Source of the DNA: Terriglobales bacterium
GTDB taxonomy: Bacteria > Acidobacteriota > Terriglobia > Terriglobales > Acidobacteriaceae
Reading direction: 5' to 3'
DNA: 64,000 nt
NCBI GenBank assembly: GCA_049697355.1
Contig: JBAVVP010000163.1
Span: forward strand, 1,169-65,168
Shown one piece after another: positions 1 through 49,966 of the stretch. The notes below the pieces were generated by a model. That model did not search any database, was not told the origin of the DNA, and saw only the letters and a list, made by a program, of their open reading frames with translations. Both the position numbers and the translations under genes were made by a program. Each line of letters opens with the position of its first letter. Positions within the stretch are counted from its first letter, which is position 1.

Positions 1-897
1 ATGAAATTGCGTGAAATGTACCGGCACATCCACGCCCAGGTTGGACTTGATCCAACGCGCCAAGCCGCGGAATTCGGTATCGCTGTCGTTCATCGCCGGC
101 ACCACCAGGTAGACGATCTCGGTCCACTTGTTCATCTTCCGCAAGGTGACCAGCGAGTCCAATACCGGCTTCAACTCACCCACGACAACATCTTTGTAGT
201 AAGACTCCGTGAAGGCTTTCAGATCGATCTTGACCGCGTCCATCTTTCCGTACGCCGCTTTCAGCGCCTCCTCTTGCATGTAGCCGTTCGACACGACTAC
301 GCTGCGGACTCCGGCCTCGTGCCCGGCATCGGCCGCATCCATCAGATACTCGCTGAAGATCACCGGCTCGCTGTAGGTGTAGGCAATCGTGGGACAGCTA
401 TTCTGTTTGGCCAGCTCGGCAACCAATTTCGGGGGCGCGTACTCGGCGGGAACCTGCTCCGGACGCACCTGGGAGATGTCCCAGTTCTGGCAAAATTTGC
501 AGTTGACGTTGCAGCCCGCCGTGGCCAATGAGAAAGCCAGTGTCCCCGGCAGGTAGTGGAACAGAGGCTTCTTCTCGACGGGATCGATGTGCGCGGCGCA
601 CACTCGCGAGTGCACCAGCGTGTGGTAGGTCCCTCCGCGATTCTCGCGCACGCCACAATAGCCGCGTTCCCGGTCTCCCACCGTGCATTCGCGCGGACAC
701 AGCTTGCACTTGATCTTCTTGTTTTGAAGTTTCTGGTAGAACTTCGCCTCGACGGTGAATCGCGAATCGTCCTGCTTTTGCGGACTCGCCCACGCCTGGG
801 TCGCGACAGGGAACTGGGCAAGCTCGCAGACGCCGAAAGCTGCTCCCGACGCCAGGGCGCACTTCAAGAACGAACGGCGATCGAGTTCACGCGACAT
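1..897 (-). CDS. Radical SAM enzyme, PflA-activase-like / AmmeMemoRadiSam-type, with N-terminal twin-arginine signal; 3' end runs off the left edge of the window
   Basis: Absent from the ORF track (no in-window stop). My reverse-complement translation from ATG (897-895) is open for all 299 codons to nt 1: MSRELDRRSFLKCALASGAAFGVCELAQFPVATQAWASPQKQ...KCKLCPRECTVGDRERGYCGVRENRGG...HIDPVEKKPLFHYLPGT...ATAGCNVNCKFCQNWDIS...VPVHFTQFH. CNVNCKFC is the CX3CX2C radical-SAM cluster motif. The DPVEKKPLFH block is typical of PflA-like/AmmeMemoRadiSam-type enzymes. DRRSFLK plus AWA-S is a Tat signal with an SPase I site. Confidence 0.8.
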   Translation of the reverse strand, partial: MSRELDRRSFLKCALASGAAFGVCELAQFPVATQAWASPQKQDDSRFTVEAKFYQKLQNKKIKCKLCPRECTVGDRERGYCGVRENRGGTYHTLVHSRVCAAHIDPVEKKPLFHYLPGTLAFSLATAGCNVNCKFCQNWDISQVRPEQVPAEYAPPKLVAELAKQNSCPTIAYTYSEPVIFSEYLMDAADAGHEAGVRSVVVSNGYMQEEALKAAYGKMDAVKIDLKAFTESYYKDVVVGELKPVLDSLVTLRKMNKWTEIVYLVVPAMNDSDTEFRGLARWIKSNLGVDVPVHFTQFH

Positions 898-956
898 GTT
901 GCACTCTCAATCACGCACCCTATCAGCCCGTGGTGCACGTCTAATCGCCGGCCCCA

Positions 957-1010
957 GCGCCTGAAGGCGCCTTCATAACGCGGCCCCTGCGGCACGCCTG
1001 AAGGCGTGCC
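957..1010. repeat. Two adjacent stem-loops sharing the 11-mer GCCTGAAGGCG in the DUF362 / radical-SAM intercistronic spacer
   Basis: GCGCC-TGAA-GGCGC at 957-970 and GGCACGCC-TGAA-GGCGTGCC at 991-1010, read directly from the sequence. No U-tract follows on either strand. Confidence 0.5.
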
Positions 1011-1041
1011 CTGATACGAAACGTATCTTCACCACAGGCTG

Positions 1042-2070
1042 CTATACCTCAACAACCGCTATTCTCCGCGGATCGTTTGTGCCCAGCCGATGCTGCGCGT
1101 CGGCGGCGGTCGCGATGTAGTGTGGCGCTCTTTTATCGCCTTCCAGCGTCTTCAATCCTTTTTCGGCCCGCTTGCGCTCGATGATTTGCCAGCCGGTGTA
1201 ATCGAGCGCGACGGGATCCTGCGAAACGATCAGGGCATTGTTCTTCCAACTGTATTCCGGCTTGTATCCGGGCCCACCTTCGAAGCAGGCCGTGGTCGCG
1301 TCGCAGATGGTCAACCGCATCTTGGTTCTGATTTCCGGCAGCATGTTCAAATCTGCGATATACGGATTGCAGCCGTTGGGGTGGTACTTGTTCGGGTTAT
1401 GAATGACTCCGTACATGTTCTTCAAGGCCATGGTTACGCCGGCGTCGTCATGGTCTTTCAGCACCGGGACATTGATCAGGACATGGCAGCGTTGCGTCAG
1501 GATCTTCGACAACCGGCTGCCCACGCTGCCATACATGGCCAGCTCGGGTTCGTAATCGATGCGATCGGTGCCAAAGCACTGCACGCGGTTTCCGCCCGTC
1601 GCTACATGAAATCCAACATGCTCCAGTTCGTCGCTATCGCGGTCCCAGACCACGATATCGTTCGCCTTGATTCCGGCCTCCTGCAACCGCTCGCAGATGG
1701 CTTCGACGAGTTGCAGGTTGCTGGAGAGTCCGCGTCCTCCAAGCGCATTGACTTTCAGTCCCACTGTCTCGCCCGGATGGACCAGCTTCTTCCACGTCTC
1801 GATCGGATTATCGCGGTCGAAGAAAGACTGCATGGCGCGATCCAGAAGGCTCAGAATCCGGCGCGAATCGACCGTGGCGCCGGCGCCGCGCAGCGCAGCG
1901 TCGTGCGCGACCACAACCCTGGACTTCGCGAGCGCCGTTACTTGTTGTTGCGGTTGTTGTTGTTCTGCTGATGCGAGCCGTTCCAGCCTGCCGCTTGCGC
2001 CCAGGACCGCAGCGCCGGTGAGGCACTTCCTAAGAAAATCCCGCCGACTGGTGCTGCGCGTTGCGCTCAT
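1042..2070 (-). CDS. DUF362-family protein with twin-arginine signal
   Basis: ORF track gives 1042..2160. I moved the start to ATG 2070 (GGAGAA upstream), giving MSATRSTSRRDFLRKCLTGAAVLGA with Tat motif SRRDFLR. The body has DUF362-like blocks as I recall them (GETVGLKVNALGG, VLKDHDDAGVTMALKNMYG). Confidence 0.75.
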   Translation of the reverse strand: MSATRSTSRRDFLRKCLTGAAVLGASGRLERLASAEQQQPQQQVTALAKSRVVVAHDAALRGAGATVDSRRILSLLDRAMQSFFDRDNPIETWKKLVHPGETVGLKVNALGGRGLSSNLQLVEAICERLQEAGIKANDIVVWDRDSDELEHVGFHVATGGNRVQCFGTDRIDYEPELAMYGSVGSRLSKILTQRCHVLINVPVLKDHDDAGVTMALKNMYGVIHNPNKYHPNGCNPYIADLNMLPEIRTKMRLTICDATTACFEGGPGYKPEYSWKNNALIVSQDPVALDYTGWQIIERKRAEKGLKTLEGDKRAPHYIATAADAQHRLGTNDPRRIAVVEV

Positions 2071-2172
2071 AAGGGTTCTCCGGTGAACCCAGGGCCAGCT
2101 CCGAAAGTCCTTAAGGTACCTATACCGCAATCCGTCTGACTTTTCAGTGACGAACAGCACTTCTGGCGATCG

Positions 2173-2670
2173 TCAGCGGGCAAGCCTCGGTTCGATGCCG
2201 CGCCCTAGTTGCAGAAGTGCCTGCTGTGTTTCCGGCGATTCCTCAAAGGCAACGATTCGCACCAGGTAAGCTCCCTTGCGGAAGACCAGGCTCTGGCTGG
2301 ACAAGCGCGCGGCGTCTCCCAGTTGAATCGGTTTCGCATCGACAGCCGGCTCCGATTCAAGAATCTTCTCGGCGCCTTCCGCGTTTCCCATGGCATAGAT
2401 GTCTGCTGTCGCTTCGACCTGGTTCTGGAACTTGTAGTCGGCCGTAGATACTCGCTGCACCCCAGCTTTCAAGTATCGTTCCGCCTCGCCGTCAATGTAC
2501 TTCCAGAGGTCGGCGGCCTCGAAGGTCCGTGTATCTCCGGTCTTCGCCCAGCCCGCGACCGGATTGGACGCGGGGAAAAGGGATGGTGCAGTTCCCGCCT
2601 GACGTTTGCATCCGGCGTTCAACAGCAGCGCGACACCGAGCATGATCGACAGCGCTTCGCGGGCCTTCAT
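2173..2670 (-). CDS. Small lipoprotein of unknown function (165 aa)
   Basis: Internal ATG 2670 of track ORF 2173..3099. It overlaps the stop of the upstream gene as ATGA (2667-2670). MKAREALSIMLGVALLLNAGC carries lipobox LNAGC. No catalytic motif recognised. Confidence 0.7.
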   Translation of the reverse strand: MKAREALSIMLGVALLLNAGCKRQAGTAPSLFPASNPVAGWAKTGDTRTFEAADLWKYIDGEAERYLKAGVQRVSTADYKFQNQVEATADIYAMGNAEGAEKILESEPAVDAKPIQLGDAARLSSQSLVFRKGAYLVRIVAFEESPETQQALLQLGRGIEPRLAR

Positions 2671-4325
2671 CTCGGCCTTTCCTTGTCTTTGTTTTTGCCC
2701 CGGTTCAGCAGAATCTGGTTGGTTCGCGATCGGCTCTCGCCTACGCTGGTCACGTAAACTGCCGGGCGATCCTGAACCGGGCAGGCGTACTCGCAAGCCC
2801 CGCAGCCCACGCAGCGATGCGGATCGACAAACGGTTGTTTGACCGGCTGCAGATGGCCCTCCGCATCGGCGACTTCGGCGGGCTGCAAATAGATGGCCTT
2901 GGGCGATGTCGGACACCACTCCTCGCACACAATGCACGGGGTTGCCATCGCCCACGGCAAACATCGTCCGCGATCCAGGAACGCTGTTCCTAGGCTGATG
3001 GGTTTGGCGTCGCTCGTGACCCGCGCCTCCCAGCCCTTTTCTTTCGCCGTGATCTCCCATATTGCGCCGGTCGGACAAACCTGGGAGCACAGCACGCAAC
3101 TGCTCTCACAGTAGCCAATCCGCGGCACCAAAACCGGCGTCCAGAGACCTTCCAGCCCCGCCTCGTTCAACGCGGGATGCAGCGCGTTGTTGGGACAGAC
3201 TTTCATGCACTCGCCACAGCGTATGCAACGCGACAGAAAGTCCCCTTCGTCCAATGCGCCCGGAGGACGCAGCAATCTCTCGTGGCGCTCGACGGCGAAT
3301 CCGGGCGTGCTGCGCAACAGTGGAACTACGGCTGCCCCGGCCGCCAATCCCGTGAGCACTTTGCGCCTCTGCAGGTTCACACCGATGGACTTTTGGGCGG
3401 GGAAGAACTTGAACTGCAGGCCGTGCTCCGGGCACTCATCAACACAGTTCAGGCAGAGATGACACTCCGCTTGACGCCACGGAACTCCGCCGATCGGATC
3501 ATCGCCGCCCTGGCAGCGCAGCAGGCAGCGATTGCAGTCCTCGCAGTGCTCCGGGCTCTTGACCAGTCCCAGAATCGACCAGCGCGAAACGATGCCGAGC
3601 AGCGCGCCCAGTGGGCAGAGTGCCCGGCACCAGAAACGGGTCACTCGAAAATTCAACGCCAAAAGAAAGATGAAGATGATGCCAAGCCAAATACCCTGGC
3701 GAAAGTACGGCTGTTTGAAGTTGAGCAGCCATCCTCCGAGAAGGAAGTTCAGCACGTTGCCTTCCAGCCCATTCCCCCAACGGCTGTGTTCGAGCACGCG
3801 CAGGCCAGCGCTCACGGCATAGTTCACACCGGGCAGGATAGACAGGCCCAGCGAGCGCACCAGCAACGAGAAGGGATCCAGCCATCCGACGACCCCCGTG
3901 CCCAACACAGCGGCGATTAAGGCCGCGACTAAGAGGTAGTACTTCGTCGTCTGCCAGCGCTTGTAGCGGTTCGATTCCAACAGTTGCTTTCCACGTTTGC
4001 GCTCGGATTTCAGGCTGCTGAAGAAGTGGTGAACGGAGCCCAGTGGACAAATCCAGCCGCAGAAGAAGCGCCCGAGCAACATGGTCGGAAGCAGAACGAC
4101 CAGGCTCCACAACAGGCCGCGGTACAGCGCGCGGCTGGAGAGAGCATTCGACAGCATTACCAAGGGATCGAATTGGAAAAACAACTGCACCGGGTAGGGG
4201 AGCCGAATCGCATTTCCGCCGGCGTGCAGCGATCCGCGAAACTCCGTGCGCAGCAGAAGGAACAAGAACAGGGAGAAGAAAATAATCTGCGAGAGCCAGC
4301 GCCACCTTGTCGGCTTAAGTCGCAC
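2667..4325 (-). CDS. Membrane polyferredoxin, NapH/MauN-like N-half fused to NapG/MauM-like C-half
   Basis: 552 aa; GTG start with AAGGAG 6 nt upstream. The multi-TM N-part has two CX3CP motifs (FFCGWICPLG, FWCRALCPLG) and two ferredoxin motifs (CEDCNRCLLRC, CHLCLNCVDECP). Then comes RRKVLTGLAAGAAVVPLL (Tat-like or anchor segment), followed by CIRCGECMKVCP, CVLCSQVCP, CIVCEEWCP and CVGCGACEYACP. Confidence 0.85.
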   Translation of the reverse strand: MRLKPTRWRWLSQIIFFSLFLFLLLRTEFRGSLHAGGNAIRLPYPVQLFFQFDPLVMLSNALSSRALYRGLLWSLVVLLPTMLLGRFFCGWICPLGSVHHFFSSLKSERKRGKQLLESNRYKRWQTTKYYLLVAALIAAVLGTGVVGWLDPFSLLVRSLGLSILPGVNYAVSAGLRVLEHSRWGNGLEGNVLNFLLGGWLLNFKQPYFRQGIWLGIIFIFLLALNFRVTRFWCRALCPLGALLGIVSRWSILGLVKSPEHCEDCNRCLLRCQGGDDPIGGVPWRQAECHLCLNCVDECPEHGLQFKFFPAQKSIGVNLQRRKVLTGLAAGAAVVPLLRSTPGFAVERHERLLRPPGALDEGDFLSRCIRCGECMKVCPNNALHPALNEAGLEGLWTPVLVPRIGYCESSCVLCSQVCPTGAIWEITAKEKGWEARVTSDAKPISLGTAFLDRGRCLPWAMATPCIVCEEWCPTSPKAIYLQPAEVADAEGHLQPVKQPFVDPHRCVGCGACEYACPVQDRPAVYVTSVGESRSRTNQILLNRGKNKDKERPR

Positions 4326-4709
4326 CCCGTACTCCTTGCCTCTCCACGCAGTGGATCGGCGCGGCGCACACCAAACCCTCGGTGCGTTCTGAGCGCCTGG
4401 CGCTGCCCACCCAATGTTCTGCCAAGCGCCTTCCGCTTTCTGTGACCAAGATCACTTGTTATGGCCCGCTGGGGCCGAGCGCAATCTGTGCGCTTCCCAC
4501 GTGATGGCATCAACAACAGTCAGAGTAGAAGGGGGAGGGCCTGGATCGCTGCGTCACAGCCATGATTGACGGGGGTCACTGCGCGCCGACCTGGACAGGA
4601 GTAGGGTCAAACTGGATTTGTTTACTCCGTTGCGGCCGTTTCCAAGTAAGCAGCTGGCTTGGTGGTGAACCAGAAAGTTGCCGGACGGACACCAGGAGGG
4701 GACAAGCCC

Positions 4710-6398
4710 ATGAGTGTTCGGCCCTCATACGAGCAACTCAACACGAATTTCGACTGGGCGAATGCTGAGCGCGAACTAGGCTATCGGCCGCGCGATTCGA
4801 TCAACATCGGTTGGATGTGCAGCGACCGCCTGTGCCAGCTGGGGATGGCCGAGAAGCTGGCGCTGCTCTGGGAAGACTATCAGGGCAACCAGAAGCGCTT
4901 CACCTACAACGATCTTCGTGTCTACTCCAACACCATCGCCCATTTCCTGGCCGGCCTGGGAATTCTCCCCGGCGAGCGGGTATGCCTCTTTTTAGACCGG
5001 GTACCCGAGTTGTACATCGGATTTCTGGGCATTCTGAAGATGGGCGCGGTGGCCCAGCCGCTGTTTTCGGCTTTCGGAGACGAATCTCTGTGTGTCCGGC
5101 TCAAAGACGCCGGGACGGCAGCGATCATTACCCAGAAGAAACATCTCCTTAAGGTCCGCAAGATCCGGGAGCAACTCCCGAACTTGCGGCACTTCATCGT
5201 GGTGGATGCGCCCCAGGCGTCTCTCCAGGAACGCGAGACTGCCTTCGCGATGGAACAATCGCCGCCCGTCGAGCACTTCCCAATCTACCCGACCAAGGCC
5301 GAATCTCCATCGGTTCTGCACTACACCTCTGGCACCACGGGCCAGCCTAAGGGTGCGCAGCACGTTCACTACTCGATCGTTTCGCAGTATCTCACCGCGA
5401 AATGGGTCCTCGATTTTCAGCCGGACGACATTTACTGGTGCAACGCCGACCCGGGTTGGGTCACCGGTACGTCCTACGGCATCATCGGTCCCTGGGCGAA
5501 CGGAATTACACAAGCGGTTCTGGACTCCGGTTTCAACGCGGAGAAATGGTACGAGTTCATCGAGAAGTACCACGTTACCGTCTGGTATTCGGCGCCGACT
5601 GCGATCCGCCTGCTCATGAAGGAGGGAGCGGAAATCATCCGCAAGCATGATCTCTCCAGCTTGCGGCATCTAGCCAGTGTGGGCGAGCCGCTCAACCCCG
5701 AGGCCGTGATCTGGTCGAGAGAAGTCTTCGGGAAACCGTTCCACGACACGTTCTGGCAGACCGAAACCGGCTGCATCGTAATTGCGAACTTTCCCGGGAT
5801 GCAAATCAAACCCGGCTCGATGGGCAAGCCGTTTCCGGGAATCACCGCAACCGTGCTGGATCCAAGAACCTACGAACCGGCCAACGCAGGTCTGATTGCG
5901 CTGCGCCCGGGCTGGCCGTCGCAGATTCGCGGTTATTGGAACAATCCCGCCGGATACCACGCCAAATTCAGGAATGGATGGTACCTCTGTGGCGACCGTG
6001 CCTCCATCGACACGGACGGCTATTTCTGGTTCATGGGACGCGATGACGACGTCATCAATACCGGCGGGCACCTGGTCGGCCCCTTCGAAGTCGAATCGGC
6101 CCTGCTGGGATGTCCGGCTGTCGCTGAGTCTGCCGCCGTTGCTAAACCTGACCCTGTCAACATGGAAGTTGTGAAAGCGTACGTGACTGTAAAGCAAGGT
6201 TTTCAACCATCCGACGACCTTGAACTGGAAATCATGAACCATATTCGCAAGCGGTTGTCGCCGCTGGCCATGCCCCAGGAAATCGAGTTCGTCGACTCGT
6301 TGCCTAAGACGCGCAGCGGCAAAATCGTGCGCCGCATCCTACGCTGCAAGGAGTTCCATGAGCCCGTGGGCGATCTTTCCACCATCATGGACGACTAA
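4710..6398 (+). CDS. AMP-forming adenylating ligase, AcsA-like (acyl-CoA or acyl-ACP synthetase)
   Basis: Track ORF 4659..6398; ATG 4710 is preceded by GGAGGGG. Adenylate-forming motifs are present: YTSGTTGQPKG, GEPLNPE, WQTETG, GDRASIDTDGYFWFMGRDDDVINTGGHLVGPFEVESAL, PKTRSGKIVRR. It is collinear with Bacillus-type AcsA as I recall it. Confidence 0.85.
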   Translation: MSVRPSYEQLNTNFDWANAERELGYRPRDSINIGWMCSDRLCQLGMAEKLALLWEDYQGNQKRFTYNDLRVYSNTIAHFLAGLGILPGERVCLFLDRVPELYIGFLGILKMGAVAQPLFSAFGDESLCVRLKDAGTAAIITQKKHLLKVRKIREQLPNLRHFIVVDAPQASLQERETAFAMEQSPPVEHFPIYPTKAESPSVLHYTSGTTGQPKGAQHVHYSIVSQYLTAKWVLDFQPDDIYWCNADPGWVTGTSYGIIGPWANGITQAVLDSGFNAEKWYEFIEKYHVTVWYSAPTAIRLLMKEGAEIIRKHDLSSLRHLASVGEPLNPEAVIWSREVFGKPFHDTFWQTETGCIVIANFPGMQIKPGSMGKPFPGITATVLDPRTYEPANAGLIALRPGWPSQIRGYWNNPAGYHAKFRNGWYLCGDRASIDTDGYFWFMGRDDDVINTGGHLVGPFEVESALLGCPAVAESAAVAKPDPVNMEVVKAYVTVKQGFQPSDDLELEIMNHIRKRLSPLAMPQEIEFVDSLPKTRSGKIVRRILRCKEFHEPVGDLSTIMDD

Positions 6399-6411
6399 GC
6401 CGAGGCCCGTT

Positions 6412-6678
6412 ATGGACGAAATCACGCAAGTAGTTCGCAATTACATAATGCGGGAATACCTGGAAGAAGGTGACGACCGAACCATTACCGAGACAACTCC
6501 ACTGATTTCTGGTGGCATTGTGGATTCGTTTTCCATGGTATCTCTGCTTCGTTTTCTGGAGAAGAAGTACTCGATTGACATTCCCGACGAATGCGCCACC
6601 CCCGAAGCTTTCGATACCGTCGAGCGTATCGCCGGACTGGTGCGACGTTTCCAGAAGGCTGAAGTCATCAAGGGCTAG
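6412..6678 (+). CDS. Stand-alone acyl carrier protein-like protein (88 aa)
   Basis: Track ORF 6358..6678, ATG at 6412: MDEITQVVRNYIMREYL...ISGGIVDSFSMVSLLRFLE. Small and acidic, with a DS(F) serine in the usual phosphopantetheine-attachment context. Confidence 0.75.
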   Translation: MDEITQVVRNYIMREYLEEGDDRTITETTPLISGGIVDSFSMVSLLRFLEKKYSIDIPDECATPEAFDTVERIAGLVRRFQKAEVIKG

Positions 6679-6749
6679 GGTGTGCCCGCCGCCGGACCCG
6701 GTTTGGCTTGGGCACCTACTGAAGAAAATCCTATTACGCGAGGCGCGTC

Positions 6750-7997
6750 ATGGCGTTTGCCGATGCAGTTCGCCACCGCTATCAGACCGATGTCGAGGGA
6801 ATCAAAAACGCAGGCCTGTTCAAAGAGGAAAGGTATATCCACTCGCCGCAGTCCTCGGAAATTGAGGTGGAGTTCCCGGTTGGCTCGGCAATCAGGAAGT
6901 GCATCAATGTTTGCGCGAACAACTACCTCGGACTCTCCAGCCATCCCGAGGTCATCGCCGCGGCGCACGCAGGCTTGGACGCACGGGGCTACGGCATGTC
7001 CTCAGTGCGTTTTATCTGTGGTACGCAGGATATCCACCGCGAGTTAGAGAATCGCCTGACCGCGTTCCTCGGTACCGAGGATACCTTGCTGTTCCCCTCC
7101 TGCATGGACGCAAATGCCGGCTTCTTCGAGGCCTGCCTGAATGAGCAGGATGTCATGATCGCCGATCGGCTCGTTCACGCCTCCATCGTGGATGGAATGC
7201 GTCTGTGCAAGGCGATGCAAGACACCTACAAGCACTCCGATATGGGGCATCTTGCGGAGAAGCTGCAAGAACACCAGGACAAGCGGTCGCGCATAGTGAT
7301 TACGGACGGCGTGTTCTCGATGGATGGCGATACCGCCAAGCTGGCTGACATCGTCGACCTGGCCGAGAAATACAACGCCATGGTGTTCGTGGATGACTCG
7401 CACGCCACCGGCTTCATGGGCAAAACCGGACGTGGGACGCACGAGCACTGCGGCGTGTTCGGCAAGATCGATGTCATCACCACGACGCTGGGAAAGGCGT
7501 TGGGCGGTGCTTCCGGAGGCTGCGTCAGCGGCCGTCGCGAACTGGTGGACATGTGCCGGCAGCGAGCGCGTCCTTACCTGTTTTCCAATGCCGTGGCGCC
7601 GGTGATCGTGGCGGGTGCGCTCAAGGTACTGGACCTAATCAGCGCCTCCACCGATCGTCGCGACAAACTGGAATGGAACGCGAGGTATTGGCGCGGCTTG
7701 CTCAAAGACGCTGGTTTCGATCTGAAGGAAGGGGATACCCCGATTGTGCCGGTCATGCTCTACGACGCCAAACTGGCGCAAGACTTTGCCCGCGATCTCT
7801 TTGACGAGGGCGTGTACGCCGTTGGGTTCTTCTTTCCGGTCGTGCCGAAAGGGCAAGCCCGGATTCGCACGCAACTGTCGGCGGCTCACGATAAACACCA
7901 TCTGGACGCCGCCATCGAGGGTTTCAAAAGAGTAGGGAAAAAACACGGCATTCTAGGTTTGGGAAAAAAGGAACTCATGGCGAGAGCCGTTGCGTAA
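6750..7997 (+). CDS. PLP-dependent alpha-oxoamine synthase, glycine C-acetyltransferase (Kbl)-like
   Basis: 415 aa; collinear with E. coli Kbl as I recall it (GLFKEER, NNYLGL, VRFICGTQD, DGVFSMDGD, VDDSHATGF, TLGKALGG with PLP lysine, RPYLFSN, PKGQARIRTQLSAAH). Confidence 0.9.
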   Translation: MAFADAVRHRYQTDVEGIKNAGLFKEERYIHSPQSSEIEVEFPVGSAIRKCINVCANNYLGLSSHPEVIAAAHAGLDARGYGMSSVRFICGTQDIHRELENRLTAFLGTEDTLLFPSCMDANAGFFEACLNEQDVMIADRLVHASIVDGMRLCKAMQDTYKHSDMGHLAEKLQEHQDKRSRIVITDGVFSMDGDTAKLADIVDLAEKYNAMVFVDDSHATGFMGKTGRGTHEHCGVFGKIDVITTTLGKALGGASGGCVSGRRELVDMCRQRARPYLFSNAVAPVIVAGALKVLDLISASTDRRDKLEWNARYWRGLLKDAGFDLKEGDTPIVPVMLYDAKLAQDFARDLFDEGVYAVGFFFPVVPKGQARIRTQLSAAHDKHHLDAAIEGFKRVGKKHGILGLGKKELMARAVA

Positions 7998-8093
7998 TCG
8001 GCGGATCATCTATTGATGAGAGCAGCCGAGTGCCGGTGCCGAGTTCATTGGGCAGTCAGCTCCGTGACGATTTGAGGAGGAAACGGAGGTCGT

Positions 8094-8276
8094 ATGCTCT
8101 GTGCAGAGCTTGAGGAACTGGAAGCGGAATTCGATGACATTCTTACCGCGCTCGAGAATCCGTACCTGACCGAGCGGGAAAAACGCTCTCTGCAGGCCGC
8201 GTATTCCCGGCTCAGTCACACCATCAAGGATCACCAGAAGCATGGTCACGATGGTGGCCCCTGCTTTGAAGAATAG
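8094..8276 (+). CDS. Small hypothetical protein (60 aa)
   Basis: GGAGG lies 5 nt upstream of the ATG. Acidic helical N-half and His-rich tail (HQKHGHDGG). No family recognised. Confidence 0.4.
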   Translation: MLCAELEELEAEFDDILTALENPYLTEREKRSLQAAYSRLSHTIKDHQKHGHDGGPCFEE

Positions 8277-8343
8277 CGGACTCTCCACTCGCATGAGGAG
8301 CGCTCCTCGTGCTTAACACTTTCATGAACGTAAAGGAGAAGTT

Positions 8344-8835
8344 ATGACAACCGCGACTCTGAAAGCAACCAAGGTCTTCAGCTATCTCCGACCCGAGGAG
8401 ATCGATTTCCTCAGTAATTACGCCAGCACCGAACAATACAAAGCCGGCGCAATCGTCTACCGCAAAGGGCAGCCCGCCGCCCGTGCGTACGTTTTACTCG
8501 AAGGGGAAGTCGTACTCCGCGCTCCCACTCCAGCGGGTCACGGCATTGTCATCGAAGAAGTGGGTCCCGGTACGATGATCGGGGCGAGCGTGCTGTTGGG
8601 GGAAACCTATATGGTGACGGCCCAGTGTGTCACCGACTGCAAGATCATGACTCTCGGCAAAACGGCCCTGGAGCGGATCGTGGACGCCAATCCGCAAATG
8701 GGATTGGTCATTGAGAAGTACCTGGCTGAGCATTACTACCAGAGAAGTCTCGACCTCATGCACATGCTGGAAGGCCTGATACGGGGAGAGCCGCCGGAGG
8801 AGCTGAAGCGGGGAGGACCTCTGCCGATCGTGTGA
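8344..8835 (+). CDS. Cyclic-nucleotide-binding (CAP effector) domain protein without output domain
   Basis: 163 aa with AAAGGAGAAG RBS. cNMP-binding pattern (YKAGAIVYRKGQPAARAYVLLEGEVVL...GPGTMIGASVLLGE). No HTH follows. Confidence 0.75.
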   Translation: MTTATLKATKVFSYLRPEEIDFLSNYASTEQYKAGAIVYRKGQPAARAYVLLEGEVVLRAPTPAGHGIVIEEVGPGTMIGASVLLGETYMVTAQCVTDCKIMTLGKTALERIVDANPQMGLVIEKYLAEHYYQRSLDLMHMLEGLIRGEPPEELKRGGPLPIV

Positions 8836-8878
8836 GACCCATGGCGAGATCGGGGTCTATGATCGGATCGATGGTTTC

Positions 8879-10177
8879 TTAGACGCGATACCAATCTTCC
8901 CGCGTCAGCGGCAAACCACTGCTGCCTTGTCCTGGCTTAGCGAGGAGTGTCTGATACACGTTCAGTCGCTCCGTGCGGAATGCGTGAGCGGAGCCGGCCA
9001 TGTAGAGGCGCCATATCCGGTAAGTTGTATCATCCGAGATTCCACGTGCCTGCTCGGCATGGGCTTCCAGACGCCGGACCCAGCGGTGCAGCGTTAATTC
9101 ATAGTGCTCGCGCAAACTCTCCACGTCCCGGACCTCAAACCCGCTCAGTTCCGCCGCTCGAAGGGTGGTACTGATCGGGACCATCTCCCCATCGGGAAAG
9201 ACATAGCGGTCGCAGAAAGACGGGCCCTGCCGGTGGTAGGTGGCGCTATAAGCAATCCCATGGTTCAGAAATACTCCCCCCGGCCGCAATAGCTCGTACG
9301 CTCGGGCGAAGTACTCCGGCAGAAATACCTCTCCCACGTGCTCAAACATCCCCACACTGACAATCTTGTCGTATAGCTGACCATGCTCAAGGTCACGGTA
9401 ATCTGCAACCTCTACGCGACAGCGGTCATTCAACCCCAATTCGCGCAGCCGTTGTCGGGCTAGTTCCGCCTGCGGCGCACTCAGCGTGATTCCTACCGCT
9501 TCCACGCCATAGTGGGCAGCGGCGTGCATGATCAATCCACCCCAACCGCAACCAATGTCCAAAAGACGCTGACCACGGCAGAGCCGCAGTTTTCTGCAGA
9601 TGTAATCCAGCTTCCTCTCCTGCGCCGAATCCAGATCTTCTTCCGGTGTGGCGAAGTAAGCGCAGGAGTAAACCATGTGCCGATCGAGCCACAGCGCGTA
9701 GAACTCGGCCGGAAGATTGTAGTGATAGCTGACGGCTTGGCGGTCACGATCTCGAGAATGAAGGGATCCGCTGAAATTGGCTGGTCGCCGGTCCTTATGA
9801 GCGCGGTCGCTTACCGGCAACTTCTGCAGTCGTTTAGCAAGATCAAAAGTCTTCCGCGGGTTGCGTTCTTGCCCAAGCATGGAATCCGCCAACTGGAAGA
9901 TTGCTTCGATGTCGCCCTCGATGTCGAAGTCATCGTAGATGTACGCTTCTCCGAGCGTGAGTTCGCTGGGGCAGGAAAACATCGCACGCAAGGCTCCTGG
10001 ATGCTTGAGCACCAACGTGAAGCGCGGTTGCGGTACCGCTCCCCAGGTGGCGCCGTCCCACAGCCGAACCTGAAAATCCCGGTTCGGGTAGTCTTCCAGG
10101 AGCGCCTCCAGGAACTCGGCGCTCGCCACTGAAGCCGTTTCCCTGAATAGAAAGTTCGCCAACGCTGCCATGCGCAC
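8879..10177 (-). CDS. cfa: Cyclopropane-fatty-acyl-phospholipid synthase family SAM methyltransferase
   Basis: 432 aa. SAM-binding LLDIGCGWGG and a CFA-synthase-family C-terminus (YMAGSAHAFRTERLNVYQTLL). Confidence 0.85.
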   Translation of the reverse strand: MRMAALANFLFRETASVASAEFLEALLEDYPNRDFQVRLWDGATWGAVPQPRFTLVLKHPGALRAMFSCPSELTLGEAYIYDDFDIEGDIEAIFQLADSMLGQERNPRKTFDLAKRLQKLPVSDRAHKDRRPANFSGSLHSRDRDRQAVSYHYNLPAEFYALWLDRHMVYSCAYFATPEEDLDSAQERKLDYICRKLRLCRGQRLLDIGCGWGGLIMHAAAHYGVEAVGITLSAPQAELARQRLRELGLNDRCRVEVADYRDLEHGQLYDKIVSVGMFEHVGEVFLPEYFARAYELLRPGGVFLNHGIAYSATYHRQGPSFCDRYVFPDGEMVPISTTLRAAELSGFEVRDVESLREHYELTLHRWVRRLEAHAEQARGISDDTTYRIWRLYMAGSAHAFRTERLNVYQTLLAKPGQGSSGLPLTREDWYRV

Positions 10178-39812: not shown

Positions 39813-41702
39813 TCATTTCTTCTTCTTATTGTAGTTTTGCATCATCGCCTGAAAGCGGTCCATGGTCGGCTGGAGTTGCTGCGGATCGCGAATGCAATTC
39901 GAGAATATTGAACGCGGGTCGAAGTCTCCCATGCCTCCGAAATACCGGTACGCTGCGGGCGGCGGCGGGCCACCGGGCTGGCCTGCCGCGGGAATGATTT
40001 CAGGAAGCTGGACCGCGTACATGCTGCCACCGGCGAGAACCTGGTGCGGATACTCCATGAGCCAAATACAGTTCCCCGCATCCGCCATATAGTTAGCGGA
40101 GACTACCGCCCATTGGCCGCCATCGTGCGATGCAGGTTGCTGGCAATCCCAAAGCAACGCCTGGGGAACGTAAGCCGCAGACTCTGAGAATCCATACTCC
40201 TCGAGCAGGAGCTGCTTCAGACCGCGCTCGCGCACGAAACTCTCCACTTCGGGAAGAGCGTGGTTCCAGTCGAGGTTCGAGTCGTTGACCAAGGTGTAGC
40301 CCGGCCGTCCCATGCTGAGAATATTCAGATAAGGAAAATAGTTCGGGTAGGCGCGTATGGCCGTAACGATGGAGGACAGCACTAGCACAATCGTGAGCCA
40401 GTTTCCGATACGTGCCGCCAGCGGGCTCGAGTCGCGCAGCAGTTCCAGCGCACGGGGGAGGGGGGCGAGCAGCAAGACAATAAGCGCCAGCGCAACCGAG
40501 AAATGGCGGATGCTGAGGTCCAATCGGTTCAGCATGCAGGCGGCGACGAATACGGCCAGGGAAACCCAGACGGCGCGCCAGTGCAGGTCCAGCTCGGTGG
40601 GTATCGCCGCACGCGCGAGTGACCGCCGCTTCACAATCAAGGCCGTCGCAGTAGCAAGAAAGAGGAGCAAAAGGAACGCCAACTGCGATTTCAAAAGGAA
40701 GAGCACGGGGAAATAGAACCAGACCCCGTGCGGATAAGGATGGCCGAGGATGTATGTGGGACGGCTCGCTGCACTGAACGCAAATCCCACCAGACCACGC
40801 AAGTAGATCCCGAGCGGCATGAGCAGCCGCCGCAGGACCGGCGAAGCGGGAAAGTGCGGAATGATCTGGAAAGAATCGGTTGGTTGGTTCCACGACAGGA
40901 CCAGATACACCAGGTAAACGAACAACGCGGCCCAGAGAGTCCCTTTTGCAAGATTGCGCCACGCCCGCCGGCGCCAGCGGCGCAGTTCGATCTTCTCAAC
41001 CGGTTGCTCCGGCAGCGGCTTGCATCGCAAACTCAGGGCAAAGGCAACGAACACGAAGAACAACAATCCCGACGAAAACTTAGAAAGCAAAGCTCCGGCC
41101 AGCGCTAGACCAAACTTCACGACTGTTCCCCGCGTGGGTGAACGCCACAACTTCGGGAGTTGCCAAACCGTCAGCACCCAGAATGATGCGACCGCGATGT
41201 CGGTAATCACGAGCGGGCCAAATGCGAGAAAGGCCGGCATGGTCACGAAGGCCGAGAGACAGAGCAAGCCTCCCCAGTCGCCTCCTAGCCGCGAGCCACA
41301 AGTGTAAAGAATGAGTCCCAACAACAAAGTCATCAGCAACATGGGCGCTCGCGCCCATAGCACCGTGGAGTAGGGGTCGTTCCACTGCATGAGGAACCAG
41401 TGTCCGAAGACCCACTCGCCCAGAAACTGGTGGAACATCTTGTTGCTGAACGTCCAGGAGAGATGGGAATAGTCGGCATGCGCCCCGCGCAGAACCAGCG
41501 GCAGCGCGGCGACCACCTTGGCCAGCGGGGGATGCTCTTCGTTCATCCGCATGTCTAACTTCTGGAGATAGCTCACGCCAGCGCCGATATGCGGGACTTC
41601 ATCGACGGTTACGGACTCACGTCTCGCTGCCCCACCCGCGAGCAGCGCCATCAGGGCAAGTAGGAGGACTGCGGTGAAGCAAAATCTTCCAGGTGTTTTC
41701 AC
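39813..41702 (-). CDS. GT-C fold glycosyltransferase (GT39 / ArnT-PMT_2-like) membrane protein
   Basis: 629 aa with many TM helices and then a soluble C-domain. The N-terminal DEVPHIGAG...EHPPLAK pattern resembles PMT_2/ArnT-type enzymes. Confidence 0.7.
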   Translation of the reverse strand: MKTPGRFCFTAVLLLALMALLAGGAARRESVTVDEVPHIGAGVSYLQKLDMRMNEEHPPLAKVVAALPLVLRGAHADYSHLSWTFSNKMFHQFLGEWVFGHWFLMQWNDPYSTVLWARAPMLLMTLLLGLILYTCGSRLGGDWGGLLCLSAFVTMPAFLAFGPLVITDIAVASFWVLTVWQLPKLWRSPTRGTVVKFGLALAGALLSKFSSGLLFFVFVAFALSLRCKPLPEQPVEKIELRRWRRRAWRNLAKGTLWAALFVYLVYLVLSWNQPTDSFQIIPHFPASPVLRRLLMPLGIYLRGLVGFAFSAASRPTYILGHPYPHGVWFYFPVLFLLKSQLAFLLLLFLATATALIVKRRSLARAAIPTELDLHWRAVWVSLAVFVAACMLNRLDLSIRHFSVALALIVLLLAPLPRALELLRDSSPLAARIGNWLTIVLVLSSIVTAIRAYPNYFPYLNILSMGRPGYTLVNDSNLDWNHALPEVESFVRERGLKQLLLEEYGFSESAAYVPQALLWDCQQPASHDGGQWAVVSANYMADAGNCIWLMEYPHQVLAGGSMYAVQLPEIIPAAGQPGGPPPPAAYRYFGGMGDFDPRSIFSNCIRDPQQLQPTMDRFQAMMQNYNKKKK

Positions 41703-41753
41703 TTCCGTTAACCTCGTGCAATCAAACTGAAGAGGCGAAATCTACAGCACACT

Positions 41754-43652
41754 CTAGACCGTCGTCGGCGTCGTTCCTGGCGCGGTATTGGCCGGGCCAC
41801 TGTACTGGTTGATGTGTTCGAGTTCCTGGAGATGGTTGTACCAGGTGAACTTCAGGGTGATCGAAGTAATCGCGATGACGCCAAACGCGATCGCCGCGGT
41901 CCGCAGCCTCCACGTCACGATGTAGATGGGCAGGGCCACCAGGGCGATCTGCCAGACGATGCCAACGACGACGTTGAACATGTCGCGGAAGAAATCGTTG
42001 TTCTTTTGAAAAGACGGGTCCTCCTGCTGCACTTTCTTCAGGATCGGTCCCCAGAAGCCCCAGGGCCGCACCCGCCGGTAGAACTCTTTCAACACTTCTT
42101 CATCTTCCGGCGCGGTGAGCCATGTGCCCGCGAAGCAACCGATGAGCGATAGCAGGAACACTATGCCAAAGCCCACGGAGACTTCCAGATTCAGCGAATG
42201 GGCATGGGCGAAATTCTGCAAAGGCTCGATCGTTGTCAGTAGCGTCGGAATCGTCAGCGCGGAGGAGATTCCCGCCACCATGCCCCAGAAATAACCATAG
42301 CCATTGAAGCGCCACCAATACCACTTGAGCACATTCGAAGCCGTGTAGCCGCCCCAGAGCGAGGTCACGATCCAGATCACCACGTTGTTCACACTGGTCA
42401 CGTACCAGCCGAGCAGCACGCCGAGCAGCACCACCACGAACGAACTCAGATAGCTCAGCCGCACGTAGGTCTTCGCGCTGGCATTGGGATTGATGAAGCG
42501 CTTGTAAATGTCGTTCACGAAGTAGGGTGGCGCGGCATTCACAGTCGCAGCGAAGTTGGACATATACGCAGCCAGCAAGCCCGCGATCAGCACGCCGAGC
42601 AAGCCGGCCGGAACAAACAGCGCCAGCGCCGACGGAAGAATCCGCTCGAAATCCATGTTCGTGCCCATGCTCCGGATCTGGTCGCCGAAAAACACCAGCG
42701 CCAGCACGGTCAGCCCGGTGATCAGGAAGTAGCGCGGGAACGTCAGCACCACGTTCACCCATCCGCTCATCATGGAGGCTTCGCGCGGGTTCTTGCAGGA
42801 AAGAACGCGCTGCATGTCGTAGTTGGGCGCGGGGCCGGCGGCGCTGATCAGGATGCCTTTAAAGAGGAGCATCATCACGAAAAATCCGAATAGTCCGTAG
42901 CCGTCCTGCGCCACGCGCGCATTGGCCGACGGTATCAGATGGGACCAGTCCAGATTCAAGTGCCACCCAAAGAAGATGTTGCCCCAGCCTGCTGGAGTGA
43001 AGCGCTGCAACGTCCCCGGCGCGACCTTCATCATGGCGATGATCCCCACCGCGAAGGACGCGACGGAGAGGATGCAGAACTGCAACACTTCGGTGATCAC
43101 CACGCTGAACATCCCGCCCTTGATCACGTAAATGGCGGTGATGGCAATCAGCAGGAGGGCGTACTGATTCACGCTGAGGTGCCAGGGCAGGAAGGTGGCG
43201 GCGAATTTGCCGATGCCCTTGAACCCGTAAGTGAAGAATCCGATGATGCTGATGAAGGCGTAAATCACGACGATGATGTGGGAAAGTTGCGCGCCGCGGC
43301 CCTTGCCGAATCGCGTCTGAATCCACTCCGCACCCGTCATCACATTCGATCGCCGCAGCCAGGTGGACATATACACCATCAGGATGACCTGGTTGAAGGT
43401 CGGCCAGAGCCACGGGATCCACACGCTCTTGACGCCGTAGACAAACATCCAATAGACCAGCAGCATGGTGCCGCTGATATCAAACATCCCCGAAGCGTTG
43501 GAGATCCCGAGGATGTACCAGGGCATGACGTTGCCGCCCAGGAAGTACGCCCTCATGTCGCGCGACGCGCGATGAGAAACCCAGTAGCCGATCAGGACCG
43601 ACAGCGCCAGGTAGGCAATGATGATGGCAATATCAATGAAATGCAGGTGCAT
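41754..43652 (-). CDS. Sodium:solute symporter family transporter
   Basis: Track ORF runs to 43697; ATG 43652 gives MHLHFIDIAIIIAYLALSVLIGYWVSHRASRDMRAYFLGG. Polytopic throughout. Confidence 0.85.
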   Translation of the reverse strand: MHLHFIDIAIIIAYLALSVLIGYWVSHRASRDMRAYFLGGNVMPWYILGISNASGMFDISGTMLLVYWMFVYGVKSVWIPWLWPTFNQVILMVYMSTWLRRSNVMTGAEWIQTRFGKGRGAQLSHIIVVIYAFISIIGFFTYGFKGIGKFAATFLPWHLSVNQYALLLIAITAIYVIKGGMFSVVITEVLQFCILSVASFAVGIIAMMKVAPGTLQRFTPAGWGNIFFGWHLNLDWSHLIPSANARVAQDGYGLFGFFVMMLLFKGILISAAGPAPNYDMQRVLSCKNPREASMMSGWVNVVLTFPRYFLITGLTVLALVFFGDQIRSMGTNMDFERILPSALALFVPAGLLGVLIAGLLAAYMSNFAATVNAAPPYFVNDIYKRFINPNASAKTYVRLSYLSSFVVVLLGVLLGWYVTSVNNVVIWIVTSLWGGYTASNVLKWYWWRFNGYGYFWGMVAGISSALTIPTLLTTIEPLQNFAHAHSLNLEVSVGFGIVFLLSLIGCFAGTWLTAPEDEEVLKEFYRRVRPWGFWGPILKKVQQEDPSFQKNNDFFRDMFNVVVGIVWQIALVALPIYIVTWRLRTAAIAFGVIAITSITLKFTWYNHLQELEHINQYSGPANTAPGTTPTTV

Positions 43653-43837
43653 GAACACCCCAATGGCCCTCCCATGAGGGCGTGACTTCCCGCACATTTC
43701 CCGGAGACGTGCGCCCCACTCTCTAGTTTTGCGGGCACGCTAAATATTTACACCTCAAAGTTGTTCAATGCCAGTAGAAAATCGTTATACTAAGTATTCT
43801 TGCCGGTTCGGAACCTGCCGTTCAGAAAGCCGCCATC

Positions 43838-46282
43838 ATGAAATACGGGTACTTCGACGATCAGAACCGCGAGTATGTAATCACGCAGCCGGATACGCCA
43901 CTGCCCTGGATCAACTACCTCGGATGCGAGGCCTATTTCGGAATCATCTCCAATACTGCTGGCGGCTACTCTTTCTATCGCGACGCGCGCCTGCGCCGCA
44001 TCACGCGCTACCGTTACAACAACGCTCCCTTCGATCTCGGCGGACGCTACATTTATCTTCGTGATGATAGCTCTGGCGAATTCTGGTCTCCCTCCTGGCA
44101 ACCCACGCGGCACAAGCTGGAGCAGTATTCCTGCCGTCACGGCATGGGCTACACCACGATCGGCTCGCAATACGGCGGCATTGAGGCGAGTGCCCGCTAC
44201 TTCGTGCCTCTCGGCGAGAATCTCGAAATCTGGCAGCTGACGATCACGAATCATCGCCCGCAGGCCGCCGAACTCTCGGTTTTTTCCAGCGTCGAGTTCT
44301 GCTTGTGGGACGCGCAGGACGATTCTACAAACTTCCAGCGCAACTTCAGCATCGGCCAAGTCGAAATCGAGGACGGCGTTATCTACCACAAGACCGAATA
44401 CCGCGAGCGCCGCGACCACTTTGCGTTCTTCGCGTGCTCGGAGAAAATCGCCGGCTACGACACGCAGCGCGACGTTTTCCTCGGCCCCTATCGCGGCTGG
44501 GACAACCCCTCTGCCGTGGAGCGTGGACACTCGTCCAACTCCGTCGCCCACGGTTGGGCTCCCATCGGCTCACACCACGTCAAGCTCTCGCTCAAGCGCG
44601 GCGAATCCCGCCAGATCATTTTTGTTCTCGGCTATCAGGAGAACCCGCGGGACGAGAAATTCGATCCGCCCGATTCGCAAATCATCAGCAAGAAGACAGC
44701 GAAAGCCACGATCGCCAAGTATCGGGTTGCGGCGAATGTCGACGCGGCGTTCGAAAAGCTTCGTCTTTACTGGAGTGAATTGCTCGGCCTCTGCCAGGTG
44801 CAGACGCCCGACGTGCACACCAATCGCATGGTGAACATCTGGAACGCTTATCAGTGCATGGCTACGTTCAACATGTCCCGCTCGGCGTCCTTCTACGAAT
44901 CCGGCATCGGCCGAGGCCTCGGCTTCCGCGATTCGAACCAGGATCTGCTGGGCTTTGTCCACATGGTTCCGGGCCGCGCCCGCGAACGCATACTCGATCT
45001 CTCGGCCACGCAGCTCGCCACCGGCGGGGCTTATCACCAGTACCAGCCGCTCACCAAGCGCGGCAATAACGACGTGGGCAGCGGCTTCAACGACGATCCC
45101 CACTGGCTGATTATCGGCGTCGGCGCTTATCTCAAAGAAACTGGCGACTGCAACATTCTGGATGAACTTGTGCCCTATGACAATAAGCCCGGCTCCGAAG
45201 CGCCGCTCTACGAGCATCTGCAGCGCAGCTTCCGCTACACGCTCGATCGTCTCGGTCCGCATGGCCTGCCGCTCATCGGCCGCGCCGATTGGAACGATTG
45301 CCTCAACCTGAACTGCTTCTCCGATTCGCCGGGGCAGTCCTTCCAGACCACCACCAACAAAGACGGCAAGGTTGCCGAATCCGTTTTCATCGCTGGGCTG
45401 TTTGTGCTCGCCGGCCGCGAGCTCGCCGAAATCGCCCGCCATCGCGGCCTCGCCGCCGAGGCGTGCTCGTACCTGAGAGAAGTGGTCAAGATGGAAGCCA
45501 CGATCCGCCAGCATGGATGGGACGGCGAGTGGTTTGTCCGCGCCTACGACGATTTCGGCCGCAAGGTCGGCTCCAAGGAAAATGCCGAGGGCAAGATCTT
45601 CATCGAGACGCAGGGGATCTGCACACTGGCCGGCATCGGCATAGAAGATGGCCTCGCGGCTCGCGCCCTCGAATCCACGCGCCAGTTGCTCGCCACCAAA
45701 CACGGCATCGTCCTGCAACAGCCGGCTTACTCGAAGTATTACATCGAACTCGGCGAGATCTCCTCGTACCCGCCGGGCTACAAGGAGAACGCCGGCATCT
45801 TCTGCCACAACAATCCGTGGGTCATGATCGGCGAAACGCGCGTCGGCAATGGAGACCGTGCCCACGACTATTACAACCGGATCAATCCTTCCGCTCGCGA
45901 GGAAATCAGCGACGTCCACCGCTGCGAACCCTACGTTTACGCCCAAATGATCGCCGGCCGCGATGCTCCCACGCATGGGGAAGCCAAAAACTCGTGGCTT
46001 ACCGGCACAGCCGCTTGGAACTACTACGCCATCACGCAATGGATTCTTGGCATCCGCACGTCCTACGATGGGCTCTTGATCGCGCCGGTCATCCCGAAAA
46101 GCTGGCGCGGCTTCAAGGCTACCCGCAAATTTCGCGGCGTGACCTATGACATCGAAGTGCAGCGCGCCGGAGAGGGCAACCAGGTTTCTCTCGAAGTGAA
46201 TGGCGCGCCCGTGAAGGGCAACCTCGTACCGCTGCCCCCGTCGGGCCCTAAAACTGTATCGGTCAAAGCGACGCTGCGTTAA
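43838..46282 (+). CDS. GH94 cellobiose / chitobiose phosphorylase-family enzyme
   Basis: 814 aa. The N-terminus [29 protein letters not shown] and overall length are typical of cellobiose phosphorylases. No signal peptide. Confidence 0.9.
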
Positions 46283-48499: not shown

Positions 48500-48709
48500 G
48501 ACCGCTCACCCTTTCTCCTGTAACTCGCCGCGCAGCCGATCGTGCCTGCGTTCCTTACTACACGCTCCACGACTTACTTAACGTGCGTTCCCGGCCCGCG
48601 CGGCTCCGCTGGACCGGCTTCGACTCTCATCATCTCAGTGCGAAGACGTCGCTTCTTTTGCGTTGAGTCTGGAATATACGCCCGCCAATGTCAAGGTCAG
48701 ATAACGCTA

Positions 48710-48723
48710 GATAAACGTTTCTG
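48710..48723. promoter_or_regulatory. Weaker operator-like site GATAAACGTTTCTG upstream of the second LacI gene
   Basis: AAACGTTT core; 10/14 match to the 37703 palindrome. It lies in the divergent AGE / LacI intergenic region. Confidence 0.25.
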
Positions 48724-48834
48724 TAAAGGGAAATCGCTTTCACTTGCTTTTATTTCCTTGCACCCTCCCTGACAAAATCGCGTTAGAATGAGTGGTGCTT
48801 CGCTCCGCAGGGTGTTGAGCGAGGTTATGACCCC

Positions 48835-49881: not shown

Positions 49882-49966
49882 CCTCACATTCGCACCTCTG
49901 ATCTGGATGACCTCCAGTAGCAACGCTCTAGCATGCTGGTGCAGAGCTTAGCGAACTTCATTCGCA

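Follow-up and report, generated by a model that had tools for sequence, protein, structure and literature searches.

A predicted twin-arginine signal on a Terriglobales radical SAM enzyme of the AmmeMemoRadiSam family and the putatively envelope-directed system around it

The window analysed here, a stretch of 64,000 nucleotides from a Terriglobales bacterium, a soil acidobacterium (contig JBAVVP010000163.1, positions 1,169 to 65,168), starts with the 5' fragment of a gene on the minus strand (window positions 1-897) that translation, TIGR04337 and PF04055 place among the radical S-adenosylmethionine (SAM) enzymes of the AmmeMemoRadiSam family. This enzyme is predicted to carry a functional twin-arginine translocation (Tat) signal, by which it would be exported. 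On computational evidence, we consider it fairly probable that the enzyme gained this signal and belongs to an envelope-directed version of the three-protein AmmeMemoRadiSam system. Export or membrane signals occur on both the core and the accessory proteins, and each type of signal goes with its own type of redox partner; together these observations point to a system that would operate on the outside of the cytoplasmic membrane. The earlier note on this DNA had offered periplasmic action, an uncleaved anchor or an altered use of the cluster. The genomic context favours a location outside the cytoplasm, and conservation of the SAM-site and cysteine residues speaks against a degenerate enzyme.

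The frame translates into 299 sense codons with the N-terminus MSRELDRRSFLKCALASGAAFGVCELAQFPVATQAWASPQKQDD, and about 84 further codons are missing past the window edge (full-length homologues have 383-415 residues). An earlier note on this DNA had read the same frame from ATG 897 and remarked that it was unlisted in the mechanical set of open reading frames (ORFs); translation bears this out, and the frame is absent from that list because it runs off the window edge. The ATG occupies 895-897 and an in-frame TGA lies three codons upstream, at 907-909, so the frame cannot begin farther upstream. Ahead of the family core only codon 11, a TTG downstream of the two arginines, could serve as another start. 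There is no conserved internal start; the earlier note had named one past about residue 40 as the observation that would speak against the signal.

Residues 1-37 (positions 787-897, minus strand) form the predicted signal peptide and lie outside the family model. It consists of an n-region MSRELD, the RR motif DRRSFLK, a hydrophobic h-region CALASGAAFGVCELAQFPVA and a c-region TQAWA, with the predicted cut before S38; the pattern Z-R-R-x-hydrophobic-hydrophobic after a polar n-region is thus present as MSRELD-RR-SFLK. Where the earlier note had seen a full S/T-RRxFLK consensus, the RRxFLK part holds and the S/T part does not: the residue preceding RR is D, and the motif is near-consensus. The h-region and AxA site that it described are recovered as a weakly hydrophobic h-region followed by AWA. 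Specifically, the best 15-residue hydropathy of the window h-region is 1.61, which equals the median of the Tat class, as against a range of 2.29-3.45 and a median of 2.75 in relatives with a Sec-type signal, and this measure splits Tat-type from Sec-type loci without overlap. In some relatives a lipobox (for example LAAC) sits within the Tat signal. The Pfam TAT_signal model PF10518 matches the isolated 46-residue N-terminus with 23.9 bits (E 3.7e-5), over its gathering score of 22.7; PF10518 recognises 15, and TIGR01409 18, of 46 Tat-class N-termini.

The strongest evidence for this predicted signal is the conservation of RR, the profile evidence being moderate. The arginine codons R7 and R8 (874-879, minus strand) are kept, as xRRxFLx, in 117 of 119 close homologue clusters, the remaining two being gene calls that start at the internal TTG, and Tat-type N-termini were found at 50 of 82 loci; RR conservation in orthologues had been set beforehand as a check. 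A search of 1.84 billion cluster representatives returned 5,823 relatives of the enzyme. The RR pattern was flagged in 37 of the nearest 150 representatives (50%-identity clusters), about 30 of which, at 37-54% identity, show a clear RR followed by a hydrophobic stretch in an N-terminus that is otherwise unrelated. When RR-bearing relatives are aligned, the two arginines are the only invariant residues ahead of the core, an alignment that shows the lack of other conservation and is no proof of RR, since its sequences were picked for having it.

The 82 loci (80 from a one-genome-per-species scan, covering more than 20 phyla, plus the syntenic relative L001 and the window) were classed by the N-terminus of the radical SAM enzyme. 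Fifty are of the Tat type, three of them with KR in place of RR; 17 carry a strongly hydrophobic Sec-type signal or anchor; and the N-terminal extension is absent from the other 15. A rough neighbour-joining tree places the Tat type in a single large clade and the Sec type in subclades that are mostly Omnitrophota, with signal-less archaeal, Geobacter and Desulfobacterota enzymes as the outgroup. Sec-type examples include L031, L032, L043, L048, L050, L061 and L066, and proteins P0271-P0390. Around one Omnitrophota member, 108 of the 120 nearest clusters have the Sec-type signal, so the type is no assembly artefact. The charge distribution around the Sec-type segments predicts an N-in, C-out orientation in 16 of 17.

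Downstream of the signal, the protein is a genuine AmmeMemoRadiSam radical SAM enzyme with a fold like that of the pyruvate formate-lyase (PFL) activase. Despite the truncation, TIGR04337 scores 296.7 bits against a cutoff of 220, in agreement with the identification made in the earlier note, and PF04055 scores 57.4 bits. The TIGR04337 match covers residues 51-299 (model positions 1-250 of 349), and residues 1-50 are therefore an addition to the family core. The CX3CX2C radical SAM cluster motif reads CNVNCKFC at residues 129-136 (490-513, minus strand), downstream of the signal as had been noted, and is invariant in two family alignments. Additionally, a four-cysteine motif near the N-terminus of the core, CKLCPRECx9C (residues 64-81; 655-708, minus strand), has cysteines that are invariant in Tat-type and Sec-type members and probably holds a second site, for a metal or an iron-sulfur cluster. 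Alignments of both types likewise show the cluster and SAM-site residues to be invariant, so the enzyme is not degenerate and still looks like a working SAM enzyme. The 120 nearest clusters, at 82-94% identity, come from Candidatus Sulfotelmatobacter, Terriglobales and other Acidobacteria. A sequence search of the Protein Data Bank (PDB) with the enzyme gave no match, and a fold search of predicted models was used instead. For P0043, a full-length homologue that shares 88% identity with the window fragment, the AlphaFold model has a mean predicted local distance difference test score (pLDDT) of 86.4; a single isolated helix of low confidence makes up residues 1-46, and pLDDT exceeds 89 in the core, from about residue 51 on. 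The nearest solved fold is the PFL activating enzyme 3CB8, with a target-normalised template modelling (TM) score of 0.82 and a root-mean-square deviation of 2.5 Å over 255 columns at 18% identity. The label "pyruvate formate-lyase activating enzyme", which the Joint Genome Institute (JGI) gives to homologues, was rejected, as TIGR02493 scores 63.9 against 231.75 and TIGR02494 45.8 against 174.35.

The visible part of the minus-strand operon ends, in the window, with the radical SAM gene, and its order is polyferredoxin, DUF6599, DUF362, radical SAM. Exact-sequence look-ups matched the operon's DUF6599 protein on a 2-kb contig only and gave no hit for its DUF362 protein or its polyferredoxin. 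The DUF362 protein (1042-2070; PF04015 and TIGR01409) has a twin-arginine signal of its own, MSATRSTSRRDFLRKCLTGAAVLGA (RR codons 2041-2046), and starts MSATRSTSRRDFLRKC; TIGR01409 recognises it with 19.3 bits against a cutoff of 16.7. RR is present in at least 99 of 120 clusters related to this protein. The family has invariant K, H, N and D residues and no invariant Cys. A PDB sequence search with the protein gave no match; its predicted model (pLDDT 88.3) finds its best PDB folds in LarA-family nickel-pincer-nucleotide racemases (7S91 and 9Q3K, E 5e-7), from which it differs in that the overlap is partial (TM about 0.45) at 12-14% identity. DUF362 and the LarA domain are placed in one Pfam clan (PMC11770544), which agrees with the LarA-like fold of the model. 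A related DUF362 gene with a Tat signal also stands alone in a Brocadiia (anammox) genome (L085, 7001-8068), with no radical SAM or Memo gene nearby, so this DUF362 subfamily is not exclusive to the AmmeMemoRadiSam system and has a role outside it too.

The DUF6599 protein (2173-2670, minus strand; PF20244) bears a lipoprotein signal, MKAREALSIMLGVALLLNAGC (LLNAGC), with a lipobox at 2608-2622. Its ATG overlaps the polyferredoxin stop (ATGA), the gene is also present in L001-L003, L005 and L083, and a PDB sequence search with it returned chance-level tetratricopeptide repeat (TPR) matches only. The polyferredoxin (2667-4325, minus strand; 552 residues) fuses a NapH-like to a NapG-like part and begins at a GTG with AAGGAG 8 nt ahead. 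From its N-terminus it comprises about five membrane helices, two CxxCxxCxxxC motifs, an internal Tat-like segment NLQRRKVLTGLAAGAAVVPLL (3315-3371), and a NapG-like domain with the other two CxxCxxCxxxC motifs. Aligned to the NapG model, the internal RR segment falls on the model's start, where the signal region of NapG itself lies; the Tat-like motif is kept in L001-L003. Both models score below cutoff (NapG 104 bits against 269, with residues 316-530 on model positions 7-210; NapH/MauN 86.7 against 213.05); by these profiles the protein is akin to NapG/NapH in architecture and is not a member.

Six syntenic relatives (L001, L002, L003, L005, L083 and L084, at 65-92% identity) extend the operon beyond the window edge. 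Their order is polyferredoxin, DUF6599, DUF362, radical SAM, a Memo+AMMECR1 fusion, a protein of about 780 residues on the opposite strand, and a second DUF362. The earlier note had predicted that Memo and AMMECR1 genes would lie next to the radical SAM gene, and the fusion does follow it directly in every syntenic relative with enough sequence. In these relatives the fusion passes both family models (TIGR04336 with 274 bits, TIGR04335 with 184 bits). Across 38 loci with such a fusion, nearly all fusions carry a Sec signal and many have a lipobox. In the relatives at 84-92% identity, a spermidine-synthase-like protein embedded in the membrane is encoded after the fusion. Upstream neighbours of the operon vary among the genomes of the relatives, and the operon block may move as a unit. 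In the two 92%-identical relatives, the gene directly upstream of the polyferredoxin encodes a phage-type integrase (L083, 3013-4161; L084, 82-1230).

Partner families were defined by all-against-all clustering of the ORFs in the 82 loci. Other neighbour clusters were dropped, being mostly shadow ORFs or unrelated housekeeping genes. A spermidine-synthase-like protein, built of six to seven helices, a PF01564 domain (NCBIfam "fused MFS/spermidine synthase") and six to seven more helices, is encoded within 5 kb at 43 of 72 export-type loci and at none of 10 cytoplasmic-type loci; examples are L001 12715-15072 (minus strand) and L083 10790-13132. Its nucleotide-binding motif, where readable, is GGG(V/I/A)xG, whereas canonical spermidine synthases have GGGDGG, with an aspartate at the fourth position. 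Compared with that canonical motif, the missing aspartate hints at a different ligand, possibly SAM itself. A DUF362 gene adjoins 21 of the 50 Tat-type loci and none of the 32 others, and a DsbD_2 membrane protein adjoins 14 of the 17 Sec-type loci and none of the 65 others; in two loci DsbD_2 is fused to a flavin mononucleotide (FMN)-binding domain and a NapH-like part. The kind of membrane redox module thus tracks the signal type. We speculate that the DsbD_2 link reflects cysteines kept reduced outside the cell.

From the observed signal, its conservation, the gene neighbourhood and the signals of the partners, we infer an export route, an electron path and a class of substrate. We propose that folding of the enzyme and insertion of its iron-sulfur cluster or clusters would take place in the cytoplasm, that Tat would carry the folded enzyme over the cytoplasmic membrane, and that it would then be released by cleavage at AWA|S or kept at the outer face by an uncleaved signal. 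There it would have a membrane or periplasmic substrate and would act on it together with the Memo-AMMECR1 protein, Sec-exported and often lipid-anchored, and with the LarA-like DUF362 protein, exported by Tat. Electrons may arrive via the NapH/NapG-like polyferredoxin, whose NapG-like half is predicted to lie outside by virtue of its internal Tat-like motif. Such two-pathway insertion has a parallel: Sec and Tat jointly insert the actinobacterial Rieske protein, which is polytopic and carries an iron-sulfur cluster (PMC3471235). There are two leads for the supply of SAM: it may leave the cell already bound to the folded enzyme, or it may be delivered by the membrane-embedded spermidine-synthase-like protein. 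Regeneration of SAM is known for some radical SAM enzymes. The further claim, that radical SAM catalysis truly takes place outside the membrane in a widespread clade, with dedicated partners bringing low-potential electrons (polyferredoxin or DsbD_2/FMN-type modules) and SAM (enzyme-bound or via the spermidine-synthase-like protein), is one we put forward tentatively, leaning against it as things stand. If it is true, the iron-sulfur cluster of the Sec-type lineages, mostly Omnitrophota, would be assembled on the enzyme after export.

Several points weigh against an envelope-directed, exported enzyme. On the side of the signal, PF10518 scores 20.3 bits on the whole radical SAM fragment, under the gathering score, and TIGR01409, the other Tat-signal profile, has no match to the window protein; there is a glutamate within the h-region, and not all relatives keep the AxA site (P0100 has AAPVP). 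On the side of the chemistry, we know of neither SAM nor a reductant near -450 mV being available in the periplasm, and a quinol-linked module of the NapH/NapG type is normally not reducing enough for a radical SAM cluster. On the side of the family, 17 loci of related enzymes have Sec-type N-termini. All exported iron-sulfur proteins known to us use Tat, and we know of no delivery of one by Sec, so the whole clade may need a different explanation. Additionally, five loci combine an exported Memo-AMMECR1 protein with a radical SAM enzyme that has no signal. In two of these, from Pirellulales, a conserved ORF of about 60 residues lies between the radical SAM and Memo-AMMECR1 genes (L065, 8972-9154; L069, 5373-5561); it has a Tat-like start, MTRRIFIRRLIVAGSAIVAG, and, on that basis, may be a signal-carrying partner for co-export. 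Finally, the Fisher tests on the neighbour counts ignore the kinship of the loci, and their p-values overstate the support.

Some of these points would be accounted for if the N-terminal segment were a membrane tether only, with the catalytic domain facing the cytoplasm and acting on a membrane substrate that Memo-AMMECR1 later handles outside, which we regard as unlikely. A tether dissolves the problem of SAM and reductant, both of which are available in the cytoplasm; it also fits the five loci with a signal-less enzyme and an exported partner. The replacement of RR by a strongly hydrophobic segment in the 17 related loci and the 108 Omnitrophota-type clusters speaks for it as well, since an iron-sulfur enzyme should not cross the membrane by Sec. 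However, an anchor alone would do without a twin-arginine consensus, and still RRxF(L/I) persists over a deep clade while the adjacent residues vary, and the Tat-class h-regions, at the median of 1.61 against 2.75 given above, are too weakly hydrophobic for a typical membrane helix. The N-in, C-out charges of the Sec-type segments and the lipobox inside the Tat signal of some relatives are likewise contrary to a tether.

It is quite unlikely, in our estimate, that the SAM chemistry is done once in the cytoplasm, for example on the enzyme itself or on a partner such as DUF362, and that Tat export follows, possibly in a complex. SAM would then be unneeded outside, and the nearest solved fold, the PFL activating enzyme, does act on a protein substrate. 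Tat moves folded complexes, and the signal of one subunit can bring a partner along; the Tat-like ORF beside the signal-less enzyme in the two Pirellulales loci fits such hitch-hiking. In the recently described HXS phage-defence system, a radical SAM enzyme is reported to mature an effector that acts in the periplasm (PMC13128918). Against export after cytoplasmic chemistry, the Memo-AMMECR1 partners have Sec or lipoprotein signals and would cross unfolded, so that they are not modifiable as folded proteins in the cytoplasm; the dedicated transmembrane redox modules encoded by adjoining genes suggest ongoing redox work outside; and a purely intracellular job gives no clear cause for exporting the enzyme in more than 20 phyla. 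Lastly, an artefact, whether a wrong start or a chance RR and hydrophobic pattern on a cytoplasmic enzyme, could draw on the sub-cutoff PF10518 score and the two homologues called from the internal TTG, but it was rejected as highly improbable, being refuted as far as computation goes by the conservation of RR, with the TGA three codons above the ATG, the codon-11 TTG as the only start between RR and the family core, and the export signals of the partners also speaking against it.

Set beside the canonical cytoplasmic AmmeMemoRadiSam system, the putatively envelope-directed form has the same three families (TIGR04337, Memo-like TIGR04336 as component B and AMMECR1-like TIGR04335 as component A), the same core and the same cysteine motifs. 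It differs in the Tat signal on the radical SAM enzyme and in the Sec or lipoprotein signals on a fused Memo-AMMECR1 protein, and it has gained the Tat-signal DUF362 protein, the DUF6599 lipoprotein, the NapH/NapG-like polyferredoxin and the membrane-embedded spermidine-synthase-like protein. The canonical signal-less enzymes (Methanosarcinales, Geobacter), in contrast, begin directly at the core and are without those neighbours. With the PFL activating enzyme (3CB8) and the glycyl-radical activases, the window enzyme shares the fold, the CX3CX2C motif and the SAM-site motifs; it is set apart from the former by the low identity (18%) and by the extra N- and C-terminal four-cysteine motifs and the export signal of its family, and no glycyl-radical enzyme is encoded nearby. 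The window polyferredoxin resembles NapG/NapH (MauM/MauN) in combining a NapH-like membrane part with a NapG-like four-cluster part, but the two are fused in one protein, and no nitrate reductase genes are present. Anaerobic sulfatase-maturing enzymes, QhpD and the HXS maturase are cytoplasmic radical SAM maturases of exported proteins. In those cases the substrate bears the export signal and, as far as is known to us, the enzyme stays inside, whereas here the enzyme itself bears the signal. [quoted passage not shown]

The gene is a member of a known, named and functionally uncharacterised family and is so annotated in public records; the export-directed form of the whole system appears to be undescribed. 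The literature searched (radical SAM with Tat or periplasm) yielded no description of an exported radical SAM enzyme, and an earlier mention may exist; the AmmeMemoRadiSam name occurs there in what look like incidental mentions only. Every radical SAM enzyme studied so far, to our knowledge, works inside the cell, where SAM and strong reductants are found. If the enzyme is indeed exported and active, bacteria would have to provide the periplasm with SAM and with electrons of very low potential, or the family would have to use SAM as a carried, regenerated cofactor; it would also represent a new kind of cargo for Tat, and the Sec-type lineages would raise the matter of how iron-sulfur clusters are assembled outside the cytoplasm. 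Homologues of Memo and of AMMECR1 exist in humans. The findings offer a concrete handle on the function of the AmmeMemoRadiSam system. A predicted location in the envelope, the lipoprotein partner and the membrane-embedded aminopropyl-transferase-like protein together point to a substrate in the membrane or cell envelope.

Between the DUF362 and radical SAM genes of the window lies a structured spacer of 144 nt (898-1041, minus strand), in which two hairpins sharing GCCTTCAGGCG are enclosed by a long-range stem. Its minimum free energy is -73.5 kcal/mol (z -3.1), and none of 200 shuffles was as stable. Rfam gave no match to the spacer, and the window shows no significant enrichment of its repeat; L001 lacks the spacer, its DUF362 and radical SAM genes abutting. 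The spacer may represent a repeat element that was inserted, or an RNA with a regulatory role. Over window positions 1-4800, neither a sigma-70-like promoter nor a convincing terminator was found.

Divergent from the radical SAM operon, positions 4659-10177 hold a cluster that resembles lipid metabolism, with an acyl-AMP ligase, an alpha-oxoamine synthase-type aminotransferase, a cyclic nucleotide monophosphate (cNMP)-binding protein and a cyclopropane-fatty-acid-synthase-like methyltransferase, as well as a small ORF at the position of a carrier protein that has no Pfam match. This cluster is not at the matching position in L001 or L083. Farther along the window, the AT skew is unusual at 40-44 kb (+0.22 and +0.15; 40001-44000), as is the GC skew at 48-50 kb (-0.25; 48001-50000), and these skewed stretches overlie large minus-strand ORFs at 39813-41702, 41754-43697 and 47294-48499.

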